Assembly: GCA_944392235.1 (NCBI GenBank)
Contig: CALXVZ010000003.1
Span: 46,788-110,787, forward strand
Length of the DNA stretch: 64,000 nucleotides
Direction: 5' to 3'
From: an uncultured Alphaproteobacteria bacterium
Lineage (GTDB): Bacteria; Pseudomonadota; Alphaproteobacteria; RF32; CAG-239
Below are positions 1,924 to 11,888 of this stretch, piece after piece; the stretch's first letter is position 1, and each line of letters opens with the position of its first letter. A program made the position numbers and the translations under genes. A model generated the notes under the pieces. The model saw only the letters and a program-made list of their open reading frames with translations. It was not told the DNA's origin and ran no database searches.

Positions 1924-3996
1924 ATGTTTGATATTAAAGATATTTCTGAAAATGAAGCTAAAATACAATTAGAATTTCTGGCTAAAGAAATTGAAAAAGC
2001 TGATATTGCTTATTATCAAAATGATGAACCTTATCTTGATGATGCTTCTTATGACAAACTCAGACGATTGAATGATGCTTTAGAAGCTAAATTTCCTCAT
2101 CTTATTCGTTCAGATAGTCCTTCCAAGAGAATCGGCGCACTTGTTAAAAGTGAATTCAAAAAAGTCGAATTAAAAGTTCCGATGCTGTCTTTGGCCGATA
2201 TTTTTTCTGATGAAGAGCTTAAAGATTTTGTTATGAGTATTAAACGCTTCTTAAATACCAGCGATAATATTGCTTTCACTTCTGAACCTAAAATGGATGG
2301 GCTATCCTTTTCCGCCTCTTATGTTAATGGCATTTTTGTTCAAGGTTCGACTCGAGGCGATGGTAAAATTGGTGAAGATATTACTGAGAATTTAAAAGTC
2401 ATCAAAGAGTTTCCTTTATTTTTAGATAAAGATGTTCCCGAACATTTTGAAGTTCGGGGAGAAGTATTTATGTCAAAGGCTGATTTCTTAAAGCTCAACG
2501 AAATGAATGAAAAAGAACATAAAAAGACTTTTGCGAATCCTCGAAATGCCGCAGCTGGCTCTCTTAGACAATTGGATGCTCGCATTACTCAAAAAAGAAA
2601 CCTTAGTTTTCTTGTTTATACTTGGGGAGAGGTTTCCGATATTCGTTGGAAAACTCAAAGCGAATTCCTTGATTATGTTAAATCTTTAGGCTTTCCCGTT
2701 AATCCTTATAATAAACTCTGTCTTAATGACCATGAATTACTAGATAGTTTTAATTCACTTATGGAGAATCGAGCTTCTCTTCCTTACGATATTGACGGTA
2801 TTGTTTACAAAGTTAATGACTTAGATTTGCAAAAGCGTCTTGGATTTTTGACAAGAACTCCTCGTTGGGCAATCGCTCATAAATTTCCTGCCGAACAAGC
2901 CATTACCAAATTGAATAATATTCGTGTGCAAGTAGGTAGAACAGGTGCTCTGACTCCTGTTGCTGATTTAGAACCAATTAATGTCGGTGGCGTTTTAGTT
3001 TCACATGCAACTCTTCATAATGAAGATGAAATTAAACGTAAAGACATTCGAATTGGTGATATGGTCGTTATTCAACGAGCAGGTGATGTTATTCCCCAAA
3101 TTGTTTCTGTTCTTAAAGAAAAGAGATCATCTTATTTGCCGGAATTTCAATTTCCTGTTTTTTGCCCAGAATGCGGAGCTCATGCTATTCGCGAGGAAGA
3201 TGAAGCTGTCAGACGTTGCACTGGAGGACTCTCCTGCCCTGCACAAGCTGTTGAAAGATTAAAACATTTTGTATCTCGTGAAGCTTTCAATATTGAAGGG
3301 CTTGGTGATAAAGTTATTGAGGATTTTTATAAAGAAGAAATCATTAAAACTCCATATGATATTTTTACATTAAAAGAACGCAATAAGCCTACTGATTTAT
3401 TTTCTAACGGAATATCGCTTAATCTAGAAAATAGAGAGGGTTGGGGAGTAAAATCTGTAAAAAAATTATTTGATGCTATTGAAAAAAGTAAAATAATTAG
3501 TTTGCAAAAATTTATTTATGCTTTGGGTATTCGACAGGTTGGTGCTGCTACGGCTTATCTTATTGCAAAACATTATCATTCTTTCTCCAACTTCATGACA
3601 GCAATGATAAATCAAGATTTGCAGCTTCTTGTTAGTATTGATGGTATTGGGCCTGCTATGGCTAAAGATATTGTTGAATTTTTTAAAGAAGAACACAATA
3701 TCTTTATTATTCAGAAGCTTCTTTCTGTCGTTCACATTGATGATTTTGAATCCCTTGAAAATACAGATTCAGAAATTTTTGGTAAAACCATTGTATTTAC
3801 CGGAACTCTTACATCTCTTACAAGAAGCGAAGCCAAAAGCAAAGCTTTGTCATTTGGAGCAAAAGTCGCCGGTTCTGTTTCTGCCCATACTGATTATGTT
3901 GTTGCTGGCGAAAATGCTGGGTCTAAATTATCAAAAGCACAAGAGCTTGGAGTTAAAATTATTTCTGAGAGTGATTTTATAAAAATTATTTCTTAA
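1924..3996 (+). CDS. ligA: NAD-dependent DNA ligase
   Basis: EPKMDGLS adenylation motif, [20 protein letters not shown], Cys4 zinc finger, HhH repeats, C-terminal BRCT. Confidence 0.98.
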
Positions 3997-4802
3997 TTAT
4001 TTGTTGCTTCTTTTGATTTTAAGCCTCTTTTTCGCTTATAAAATATCTTATATATGTCGATAAACATTACATTAAAAAATATCGCCAATACAGATATTAC
4101 GTATACTTTTGTTTTTATACCAAAGGCTATATCTATAATATAAGATACCATACAAAGACCACTCATAAAAATTCCACATATTACAAATTTCCAATAATTT
4201 CCTTGTGTCTTTTTATATGCATCAAAGATTGAACGACTTTTTCCTATTACTGAAGATATCCATGCTAAATATGGTCGGCTTATTGTATATGGCGATAGCA
4301 ATACCATCAAAATGTAGAATAATGTCTTTCCTAAAAGAGAATCGTGACTTTGCAGAAGTTCCATATAATTTTCGAAAAATTCGAGATATTTATCTCTAAA
4401 TCCCATAAATAAAGGTATATATGGAGCAACAACCAATACTAAATATATGCTGATGTTAATAAACATTATTTTACTTGCAGGTATCAGTCCATTAAAAATC
4501 CTTATTAAGGAAAAATATGGTGGATGCTGTTGAATATGACGAATAAATATGCACCAAAATACATAATATCCAACCAGCCATAGAATACTCAGAGAATTCG
4601 TCCAACCATTCGGTATTAATGTAAAAATATATAGAAAAGCAAAGTTTGAAAGAATCCATAGCATAAATGTTCTTTTATAGAGCAGCACAAATTTTGCACT
4701 GCTCTTTATCGTATTTAATAGAGAAAAATCTTTTATCTCTATCCCTGAAGATTTATGCTTCGTCTTCCTCAAAACCTTCCTCTTCTTCTGCATTCGGATC
4801 AT
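3993..4802 (-). CDS. Multi-pass membrane protein of unknown function (start uncertain; overlaps the virD4 3' end by 50 nt)
   Basis: About 6 hydrophobic segments; [15 protein letters not shown] resembles the S...T.G..W motif of YciC-like membrane proteins. Confidence 0.6.
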
Positions 4803-10552: not shown

Positions 10553-11596
10553 TTATACTTTTAATTTCTTTATGAATTCTCCAATTTTTTGATTTGCCTT
10601 TATTCCATCTTCTGGAGTAACTTTTATTAATCCAAAAAATTTTGGATGTATTTTTTCAAACTCTATTGGTGAAAACATTGCAGGATTTTTAGTCAAGGCC
10701 TTAAATGCACCTTCAGCATCTTTTTGAGCTGCCTTAAAATAATTTCCTATTAATTTCTCAACATTTATTGGAAAATTTTTTTCTTTTAGCTTTTTTATAA
10801 ATAAAGCCTTTCTTTCTTGTAAACTCATGTATTCTTCATACAATTCTTTTTTTATTCTGTTCTTTTGTAATATTTCTTTCTTCTGTCTGTAATTTACTTC
10901 ACAAATTTCCATATTTATTAGTATTTCTATGTATGATATTATTGACAATTGCAAGTCTGTATCTGTTAAACTTTCTGCAAAGTTCAAATACTCTTCATCT
11001 CCTGCATTCTTGGGTAATTTTTTCATATTTTCTGGATCATATCTATTTATGACATCCCAACAAGATATTAAATATTTTGCAATCTTCTGGCCTATACTAG
11101 GTTTATAATTTGGATATAACATATTTAAATTATAGTCTGTTATAGGCATTTTTAAATTTTTTTTATCTGCTAAAGCTGTTACACCATCTTGAAAATTGAT
11201 TACAGCTCTTGCCAATTCTTGTTCTTCTGCTTTTAATTGAGGCATTTCTTCTTTGGATGCTTCTTTTTCTACTTCCTTATTTATTTGCAAATTTGCAAAA
11301 TCATTCAATGTTTCTTCAGGTCTTATATTGGCAGGCATTTCTCCTTTGGATTTATTTTCTATGTCTCCTCTCTTTTCGTCCTCTATCTCTTCTTGCTCAT
11401 CATTACCAGTATCTGTTAAAAAACTATCTAATCCTTCTTGTGAATGTTGTTCTGCTTTATCTTGCTTATCCTGATTTATGAAATCATTTAACAATCTTGC
11501 AAACTCATCTTCTATTTTTTCCTTTTGTTCTTCTGTTTTTACTTGATTTTCTTGTTTAATAAAAGAATCTAATGTTTCGTTTTCTTCACTCATCAC
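10553..11596 (-). CDS. Hypothetical protein with acidic N-terminus and helical C-terminal domain
   Basis: 347-aa ORF overlapping the upstream gene's stop; codon usage matches other minus-strand genes. Confidence 0.75.
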   Translation of the reverse strand: MMSEENETLDSFIKQENQVKTEEQKEKIEDEFARLLNDFINQDKQDKAEQHSQEGLDSFLTDTGNDEQEEIEDEKRGDIENKSKGEMPANIRPEETLNDFANLQINKEVEKEASKEEMPQLKAEEQELARAVINFQDGVTALADKKNLKMPITDYNLNMLYPNYKPSIGQKIAKYLISCWDVINRYDPENMKKLPKNAGDEEYLNFAESLTDTDLQLSIISYIEILINMEICEVNYRQKKEILQKNRIKKELYEEYMSLQERKALFIKKLKEKNFPINVEKLIGNYFKAAQKDAEGAFKALTKNPAMFSPIEFEKIHPKFFGLIKVTPEDGIKANQKIGEFIKKLKV

Positions 11597-11888
11597 AATT
11601 TTCCTTTGTTAATATTTTAATTCTTTGGACTTCCTTTTCTTTTTTCTCATTAATAATGACTATACTCTCTCCTTCTATGGATTTTACTAATAAATATATT
11701 TTTCCGCCATTAATTTGGAAACTTTTTATTTCTGCAGCTTTTCCTGATACTTGAATATTTATTTCCTTAAAATCTTCTCCTCCATCTCTCATTTTATTAA
11801 GTATTTTTACAATGATTAAAAATGTGCAGATAATGATACTAATACTTAATATTATCACTATTCCTTTTATTATATTATTTTTTTCCAT
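11586..11888 (-). CDS. Small bitopic membrane protein divergent from rluD (DUF6476-like position)
   Basis: N-terminal TM helix then a beta-rich segment; AAGGA SD. Confidence 0.6.
   Translation of the reverse strand: MEKNNIIKGIVIILSISIIICTFLIIVKILNKMRDGGEDFKEINIQVSGKAAEIKSFQINGGKIYLLVKSIEGESIVIINEKKEKEVQRIKILTKENCDE

Follow-up and report, generated by a model that had tools for sequence, protein, structure and literature searches.

The window analysed here is a 64,000-nucleotide (nt) stretch of contig C3 (CALXVZ010000003.1) from an uncultured gut alphaproteobacterium, and it carries a minus-strand run of seven genes built around virD4, which encodes a VirD4-type coupling ATPase. With moderate confidence, we read this operon as encoding a type IV coupling complex that would act as the substrate-receptor arm of a vertically inherited chromosomal VirB/VirD4 system, one whose channel genes lie elsewhere in the genome. 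Among the observations that favour this reading, the operon encodes the only type IV coupling protein (T4CP) found in the genome, while a full VirB-type channel on contig C5 has none of its own. In addition, the neighbouring proteins p347 and p438, together with the p438 paralogue p163, occur solely where this VirD4 is encoded, and nearly all of these genomes also encode the VirB4 of this channel.

A seven-gene run around a VirD4-type coupling protein

The seven open reading frames (ORFs), with lengths in amino acids (aa) and transmembrane segments abbreviated as TM, are as follows.

11586..11888, minus strand: p100, small single-TM protein, first gene, 100 aa (TM window)
10553..11596, minus strand: p347, acidic soluble protein, 347 aa (alignment, model)
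8867..10471, minus strand: p534, acidic (net -35), mostly helical soluble protein, 534 aa (alignment, ORF maps)
8365..8856, minus strand: p163, short paralogue of p438, 163 aa (hhalign; start from orthologues)
6994..8310, minus strand: p438, 2-TM inner-membrane protein, 438 aa (alignments, AlphaFold model, fold matches, Atlas)
4753..6972, minus strand: VirD4-type type IV coupling ATPase, 739 aa (Pfam PF02534, TM windows, Walker motifs)
3993..4802, minus strand: p269, polytopic basic membrane protein, last gene, 269 aa (alignment, TM windows)

An earlier note, made from the letters of the window, had described seven tightly spaced co-directional ORFs at these positions, with VirD4 Walker motifs intact, housekeeping surroundings, native-like codon usage and no virB, relaxase or integrase gene in the window, and all of this held up. 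The successive gaps are -11, 81, 10, 54, 21 and -50 nt, and a scan of the minus strand from 3800 to 12200, by consensus only, found no terminator-like site. G+C content at third codon positions (GC3) is 0.17-0.28 in the seven genes versus 0.16-0.23 in five flanking housekeeping genes. The Pfam families of the remaining window are those of housekeeping genes (infC, ligA, rluD, rpoH, tgt, recN, lpxC, tyrS, radA and parAB-gidB). The assembly comprises 1.29 Mb in 31 contigs and is 77% complete; because it is incomplete, absences from the genome are given here as "not found" and prove nothing further. In this assembly, no match to the relaxase families PF03432, PF08751 and PF03389 was found. The tyrosine recombinase family PF00589 was absent from contig C3, all four of its matches lying on other contigs.

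VirD4 matched the Pfam family T4SS-DNA_transf (PF02534) with 184.2 bits (E 5.4e-54, cut-off 20.1) and also exceeded the cut-offs for TraG-D_C (79.8 vs 22 bits) and TrwB_AAD_bind (62.1 vs 20.5 bits). Two TM helices are predicted at its N-terminus (windows 15-49 and 90-114). Its Walker motifs, A at nt 6448-6471 (APPGTGKT) and B at nt 5341-5364 (LFVLDEFP), are intact, and the core residues of both are invariant among 25 VirD4 orthologues. The 13 closer orthologues also share a cytoplasmic motif at the N-terminus (nt 6916-6972) and an acidic tail at the C-terminus (nt 4756-4875), both of which are kept only in part in the 25-row set. The protein scored below every NCBIfam equivalog cut-off, the best values being 145.8 bits (cut-off 250) and 129.5 bits (PRK13897, cut-off 728). 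Judged by these profile scores, it is a divergent subgroup of the VirD4/TraG coupling proteins. For its six neighbours we detected no Pfam family at E<=0.01 and no meaningful NCBIfam match.

A VirB-type channel is encoded on contig C5

Genome-wide family searches located VirB4, VirB10 and VirB11 on contig C5 and none of them on the window's contig. Pfam recognised TrbC/VirB2 (twice), VirB4, VirB8 (twice), TrbI/VirB10 and T2SSE/VirB11 among the C5 ORFs. The VirB9 candidate gave a weak CagX/VirB9 match (E 3.7e-5) that is below the cut-off, in the part scanned. No virD4 comes after the C5 virB11, since engB and yidC follow it on the opposite strand. The window's VirD4 is the sole VirD4 found genome-wide, and its membership among the type IV coupling proteins agrees with the VirB4-containing channel in the same genome. 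The "orphan" VirD4 of the earlier note is thus an orphan within the window but not genome-wide. That note had suggested family searches of the genome for virB genes and relaxases, and these returned the virB set on C5 and no relaxase of the three families searched. Of the two roles it had offered, service to a type IV secretion system (T4SS) encoded elsewhere is the one borne out, by the C5 cluster and by a VirB4 orthologue in 17 of 18 genomes that carry the module (see below), and the same evidence makes a T4SS-independent role less likely.

Other features of the C5 cluster were noted in passing. Between the virB9-like gene and virB11 (C5 57385-67951) lie genes for two large beta-flower repeat proteins: one of 2091 aa, with beta-flower repeats (Bflower_2, E 1e-126) and matches to DUF3659 and RHS repeats, and one of 1442 aa, in which a TrbI/VirB10 domain is fused to beta-flower repeats, making it an unusually decorated VirB10. 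After virB4 come five successive ORFs (C5 42764-53537; 354, 730, 238, 437 and 1798 aa) without a Pfam family, in a position reminiscent of the tandem VirB6-like genes of rvh systems.

The operon core is conserved across families

Each of the 24 further genomes in the genus has VirD4, with identities of 80-96%; in two of them it is split over contig ends. A collection of species-representative genomes contained 363 stretches encoding a relative, and the best 80 loci (70-96% identity) were analysed by tblastn of the window proteins (E<=1e-5), many of these loci being cut by contig ends. All 80 come from uncultured Alphaproteobacteria, with record titles naming human, ruminant, deer, chicken and other gut samples, and they include Candidatus Scatocola (73% identity). 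p438 was found directly upstream of virD4 in 79 of the 80 loci, the sole miss lacking upstream DNA. p163 (74 loci), p347 (73), rluD (72) and rpoH (67) were nearly as frequent, while p269 (50), p534 (29) and p100 (11) were found in fewer loci. The gene order rpoH-rluD-...-p347-...-p163-p438-VirD4 is kept in these loci, and ORF maps of 12 diverse loci showed order and sizes unchanged. The p438-VirD4 arrangement is far beyond chance. VirD4 identity also tracks the identity of RluD (Spearman 0.85, n=70) and RpoH (Spearman 0.76, n=66), values that are descriptive, as kin are not independent.

A single sample of 301 genomes, evenly drawn from the class, was searched for p438, VirD4, p347 and VirB4. 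The p438 profile found 19 genomes, the nineteenth of which (G057) has a weak N-terminal match alone (E 7e-5). The VirD4 profile found 28 genomes at E<=1e-100; scores above 870 bits were reached in 18, every one of them a p438 genome. Clear p438 homologues and the high-scoring VirD4 orthologue therefore occur in the same 18 genomes. p347 was detected in 15 genomes, all inside these 18, and the three misses are 81%, 63% and 98% complete. With the C5 VirB4 as query, 29 genomes were found at E<=1e-100, and identity is at least 49% in 17 of the 18 module genomes. No clear p438 was seen in the ten genomes whose VirD4 and VirB4 are more distant (VirB4 identity 38-41%). Counting G025 as well, the module-bearing genomes (0.9-2.5 Mb) represent 13 families, and 11 of these families belong to orders other than that of the window. 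In all 12 distant loci with upstream DNA, a p438 homologue lies directly upstream of virD4, and several distant loci have two tandem full-length p438 paralogues.

When 46 VirD4 proteins, four of them from plasmids, were placed in a quick maximum-likelihood tree (midpoint root), 24 of 25 p438-linked VirD4s formed one clade, with a Shimodaira-Hasegawa-like approximate likelihood-ratio test (SH-aLRT) value of 99. The most divergent p438-linked VirD4, from a 63%-complete genome, sits at the base in a placement that the tree does not resolve. The VirD4s of three alphaproteobacterial plasmids fall together with five chromosomal ones that are more distant (94). Branches among the VirD4 orthologues are short, and mean column identity is 67% over the 25 orthologues.

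Collectively, these patterns indicate that the operon is vertically inherited and that its core is older than the genus. The interpretation of the earlier note is thus supported in part: the neighbours are conserved with virD4, as the counts for p438, p163 and p347 make plain, but their distribution is far deeper than a single lineage. Nor did VirD4 turn out to be patchily distributed or to cluster with the plasmid VirD4 proteins sampled, the best plasmid match being at most 35% identical and placed in a separate clade of the quick tree. These results bear directly on a further explanation, in which a plasmid or an integrative conjugative element decayed and left the run behind. A conjugation-type VirD4 among unannotated ORFs is what such a remnant would leave. 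This explanation is already contradicted and we regard it as very improbable: the chromosomal site between ligA and rluD-rpoH recurs in the genus and beyond, none of the three relaxase families was found in the genome, the contig gave no integrase match, GC3 resembles that of the flanks, and all frames are intact, in addition to the distance from plasmid VirD4s in identity and in the tree.

A second VirD4 paralogue was seen in ten genomes of other families and forms its own clade in the tree (100). In the module-bearing genome G025 (contig C4, L043:9801-12869) it has 39% identity and adjoins a gene for a pentapeptide-repeat protein and HlyD/OEP/M50 genes, not virB genes; the others are at L151-L154 and L162-L166. 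The paralogue is 1013-1022 aa long in two genomes, and the window's genus seems to be without it.

p438 and p163 share a membrane module

The following features were recognised in p438.

7981-8310, minus strand: membrane module (alignment)
7723-7773, minus strand: acidic-aromatic motif HALFNFDDDDFDLDFDF (alignment)
6997-7497, minus strand: cytoplasmic domain with a restriction-endonuclease (NERD-like) fold, ~165 aa (model, fold matches)
7273-7356, minus strand: near-invariant loop GDWLADEEKFNDEEPLWFSESSHRISPV (25-row alignment)

The membrane module is followed by a basic juxtamembrane stretch, and a low-complexity linker of variable length separates the acidic-aromatic motif from the C-terminal domain. 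p163 consists of a 2-TM module and a short charged tail, without the nuclease-fold domain. Its frame is open to a TTG at 8904 (179 aa), and the start at the ATG at 8856 (163 aa) is backed by 12 orthologues. Comparison of the p438 and p163 profiles with hhalign gave a probability of 98.4% (E 9e-15, 121 columns), indicating that the N-terminal membrane modules, each with two TM helices and a conserved periplasmic loop, are homologous. The C-terminal parts of both proteins are likely cytoplasmic, because a strongly basic stretch follows TM2 (positive-inside rule). Searches of the PDB with sequence profiles from the p438 and p163 alignments gave nothing significant (best E 0.033 and 0.41). A relation between this module and the VirD4 membrane anchor, hinted at by a weak match to PRK13897 (NCBIfam, E 0.004), was also considered and is rejected on hhalign probabilities of 0.2% and 3.3%.

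The AlphaFold model of p438 has a mean predicted local distance difference test (pLDDT) score of 62.5. Its C-terminal domain is alpha/beta, with most blocks at 71-92, two at about 60 and one loop at 48-55, and is joined to the membrane anchor by a disordered tether of ~170 aa. Foldseek matches to this domain were weak (best E 4.3e-3, top rows E 4e-3 to 5e-2), and the top rows were nearly all restriction-endonuclease-fold proteins. A VIA search with residues 266-423, which is independent of Foldseek, returned PD-(D/E)xK domains in the top 13 rows (Z 9.6-7.0), including Can2, VC1899, Cdn1, AF1548, NucS, McrC and BsoBI, with alignments of 100-118 residues at a root-mean-square deviation of 3.0-4.3 A. 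In the Atlas, the domain matched NERD clusters (0.91), with a family set common to 26 of 30 matches. The Pfam NERD family matched weakly in five of 13 members of the p438 family (best E 0.011, under the gathering cut-off) and not at all in the window's own p438, and PF08378 is precomputed on one of 120 listed p438 homologues.

In the 25-row alignment, the catalytic D...(D/E)xK positions of p438 (D300, K316 and E317) were in neither the invariant nor the >=90% list, while D315 is conserved at >=90% and the loop consensus GDWLADEExFNDEEPLWFSESSHRxSPV is almost invariant. With the catalytic positions unconserved and the loop nearly invariant, our reading is of a nuclease fold that has degenerated and may now serve binding, rather than of an active nuclease. 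By regular-expression scans of the genome's ORFs of at least 70 aa, the acidic motif, the GDWLAD loop, the periplasmic W-x-F-D motif and the N-terminal motif of p347 (below) were found solely in operon proteins. A complex prediction for full-length VirD4 with p438 residues 265-438, run without controls, gave a score of 0.00 (mark 0.32) and weighs neither way.

The nuclease fold of p438 is also what one might expect if VirD4 and its partner formed a T4SS-independent inner-membrane translocase or nucleic-acid machine, for example for relaxase-free DNA export, uptake or degradation. In every genome examined virD4 is detached from the virB genes, no relaxase was found, and VirD4 evolves at an unusually slow rate, as seen in its short branches and column identity. 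Still, the window's VirD4 is the only T4CP found in a genome whose C5 channel is without one, VirB4 accompanies the module in 17 of 18 genomes, and the catalytic residues of the fold are unconserved, so we consider this alternative improbable.

Other partner proteins

Two features were delimited in p347.

11477-11512, minus strand: N-terminal motif EDEFARLLNDFI (alignment)
10556-11245, minus strand: conserved helical C-terminal domain with a lysine-rich tail at its end (alignment)

The consensus of the N-terminal motif is EDEFxxLLNxFI, and the middle of the protein is a variable, acidic, disordered linker. Residues 120-260 are mostly modelled at pLDDT >90 and form an all-alpha bundle with generic matches: VIA gave a best Z of 9.5 (talin rod), with DotM not among the matches listed, Foldseek gave generic helical bundles and no specific relative (best E 0.22), and the Atlas gave no usable match. 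A profile search found 272 homologues, and all named ones are called "hypothetical protein". Genes for p347-like proteins were also seen beside an extra p438-like gene away from virD4 (G132 C4 109006-111138, G239 C39 40074-44921 and G185 C130 95-3163), an arrangement suggesting that p347 belongs with the 2-TM family as such.

p534 is fast-evolving, with a mean column identity of 25% and zero invariant columns. According to the ORF maps, its slot in relatives is filled by a gene for 459-674 aa, including at loci where the sequences are no longer similar. p100, whose gene shares an 11 nt overlap with that of p347, has counterparts at the distant loci L149, L041 and L141, where comparable small single-TM ORFs occupy its position. 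p269 has at least four hydrophobic segments, and its gene overlaps the end of virD4 by 50 nt. The slot after virD4 is variable among lineages, with p269 in the window's lineage and a different gene pair in other families. There, virD4 is followed by a gene for a variable protein starting MWDW or MWEW and one for a protein of ~144-155 aa (L138:5285-6761, L141:13079-14364, L143:4359-6100 and L149:5364-6357). In three of four scanned, the smaller protein has weak matches to SUKH (SMI1/KNR4, immunity-like; E 0.006-0.08). The two genes look like a toxin-immunity pair. No homologue of either was found in the window's genome (tblastn E<=0.01; 77% complete).

Some of these features would also fit an explanation in which some or all of the neighbours are not subunits but T4SS cargo, chaperones or immunity proteins, with p534, and perhaps p347, as an effector. 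Their co-transcription with virD4 would let the cell produce substrates and receptor at the same time. The rapid evolution and variable length (459-674 aa) of p534 are often seen in effectors, p347 and p534 both end in lysine/arginine-rich tails, and positively charged C-termini are a mark of VirB/D4 substrates. The gene pair found after virD4 in other families (MWDW/MWEW and SUKH-like) points in the same direction. However, p438, p163, p100 and p269 are integral membrane proteins, and p438 and p347 span at least 12 families, have invariant motifs and track VirD4 exactly, which suits machine parts better than effectors. On balance, we think this an unlikely account of the neighbours.

A proposed coupling complex

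We return to the reading of the operon as a substrate-receptor arm. The partner proteins probably form a novel substrate-docking complex with VirD4. In such a complex, VirD4, p438 and p163 would sit together in the inner membrane, where substrates or regulators would dock on the tethered nuclease-fold domain, which is degenerate but has an invariant acidic loop, and could also dock on the acidic-aromatic motif of p438. p438 would then do for VirD4 what DotM does for DotL in the Legionella Dot/Icm system, with an unrelated fold. Among the soluble proteins, p347 may serve as a conserved adaptor, whereas p534 could be either an adaptor or a substrate that evolves fast; p100 and p269 may be lineage-limited membrane accessories. 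As no relaxase was found, the cargo would more likely be protein than DNA.

Several points weigh against this proposal. The case for a physical complex is built on genomic data, and conservation of the operon could reflect co-regulated substrates or immunity genes in place of complex subunits. The separation of virD4 from virB11 fits, without requiring, a function uncoupled from the channel. On C5, the VirB9 match is weak and Pfam recognised neither VirB3 nor VirB6, and one module genome (G105, 78% complete) gave no VirB4 at E<=1e-100. The fold match of p438 is moderate, with no Foldseek match at E<=1e-3 and no Pfam NERD match in the protein itself. Moreover, a relaxase or a second VirD4 might lie in the part missing from the 77% complete genome.

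A bolder version is conceivable, although we hold it to be doubtful. Here, a type IVA system would have independently built a multi-subunit coupling complex in which a catalytically dead nuclease-fold receptor swings on a long disordered tether from a 2-TM anchor, its invariant acidic loop capturing the positively charged C-terminal signals of the cargo, as a charge-reversed mirror of DotM in function. Such a complex would be among the core traits of an entire clade of uncultured Alphaproteobacteria, spread over several orders, that have small genomes and are associated with the gut. If this were true, these bacteria would live by injecting proteins into other cells.

We see the module as a T4CP accompanied by auxiliary proteins that are specific to the lineage and come from three uncharacterised families, namely the 2-TM/nuclease-fold family, its truncated paralogue and the helical p347 family. 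A literature search, with supplementary files outside it, found no description of a VirD4-p438 module. Since all three families track one VirD4 clade across many bacterial families, they are ready-made candidates for auxiliary subunits. This matters in that substrate choice by VirB/VirD4-type systems is still poorly understood. The findings also mark a large group of uncultured gut Alphaproteobacteria (0.9-2.5 Mb) as having a core conserved T4SS, which bears on whether they live as commensals, microbe predators or symbionts of gut eukaryotes.

Other genes of the window

Three further observations concern the remainder of the window. At its end, parB, parA and gidB/rsmG are consecutive (61380-63663), a row that suggests a replication origin nearby. 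A cluster of DUF4381, VWA, VWA-TPR and BatD genes (40046-45123) resembles an aerotolerance-type Bat operon. Two minus-strand ORFs of 150 and 308 aa (14120-14572 and 15300-16226) lie on either side of a GST-like gene; neither has a Pfam or NCBIfam family, and tblastn found them conserved in just six of the 80 related loci.

Comparison with known systems

The earlier note had likened the module to the Legionella Dot/Icm coupling complex, a comparison that stands for position and concept but not for the proteins themselves. In Dot/Icm, the coupling ATPase has dedicated auxiliary subunits, among them a membrane protein that recruits substrates through its cytoplasmic domain. p438 likewise is a membrane protein with a cytoplasmic domain, and its gene lies directly upstream of virD4, just as dotM/icmP precedes dotL/icmO. 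The operon described here is of the VirB/VirD4 (IVA) type and not IVB. Its six partners match no Pfam family (E<=0.01) and no Dot/Icm family of NCBIfam (E<=0.1), and no similarity to DotM, DotN or IcmSW was seen in sequence or among the fold matches listed. According to two papers (PMC5802825, PMC7280309), the IVB complex comprises DotL with DotM, DotN, DotY, DotZ and IcmSW, and basic patches on DotM bind acidic effector signals. DotM is all-alpha with basic patches, whereas the p438 domain has an alpha/beta nuclease fold with an invariant acidic loop on a disordered tether of ~170 aa. Without a homologous partner and with a different partner fold, the module is not a member of Dot/Icm.

In contrast to the NERD and PD-(D/E)xK nuclease domains (Can2, Card1, AF1548 and NucS), whose fold it resembles, the C-terminal domain of p438 has unconserved aspartate and lysine catalytic positions and a conserved inserted acidic-aromatic loop (25 orthologues), and it is tethered to the membrane and in every case paired with a T4CP.

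Among public plasmids, the best matches to VirD4 are those of Sphingosinicella p1, Erythrobacter aureus and Microvirga pMVF16-3, with 84-92% coverage and the same Pfam architecture. These proteins, from VirB-type systems on alphaproteobacterial megaplasmids, are just 32-35% identical to the window's VirD4 and belong to a different clade of the quick tree. On the Sphingosinicella plasmid, virD4 comes directly after virB8-virB9-virB10-virB11, and no p438-like gene is annotated upstream.

The arrangement is also reminiscent of the rvh system of Rickettsiales, with scattered virB genes and with virB2 and virB8 each present twice. rvhD4 adjoins rvhB11, unlike virD4 here, and the window's VirD4 is far from the Rickettsia model PRK13897 (129.5 bits, cut-off 728). 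Like the system here, rvh (PMC2653234, PMC11077975) is a scattered P-type T4SS that is chromosomal and vertically kept, has duplicated components and occurs in Alphaproteobacteria with small genomes.

A final comparison is with Cag-beta, the VirD4 of Helicobacter. The partners of Cag-beta are soluble and sequence-unrelated to the proteins described here, and their binding has been demonstrated, whereas binding of the partners here is a proposal. Multi-subunit coupling complexes are established for Legionella IVB and Cag. A 2025 review (PMC12857230) proposes that T4CPs in general assemble with auxiliary proteins, and offers the label "D4Aux" for partners such as those of Cag-beta. Cag-beta is a precedent for the reading favoured here, in that lineage-specific, otherwise unrelated proteins bind a T4CP to recruit its substrates.

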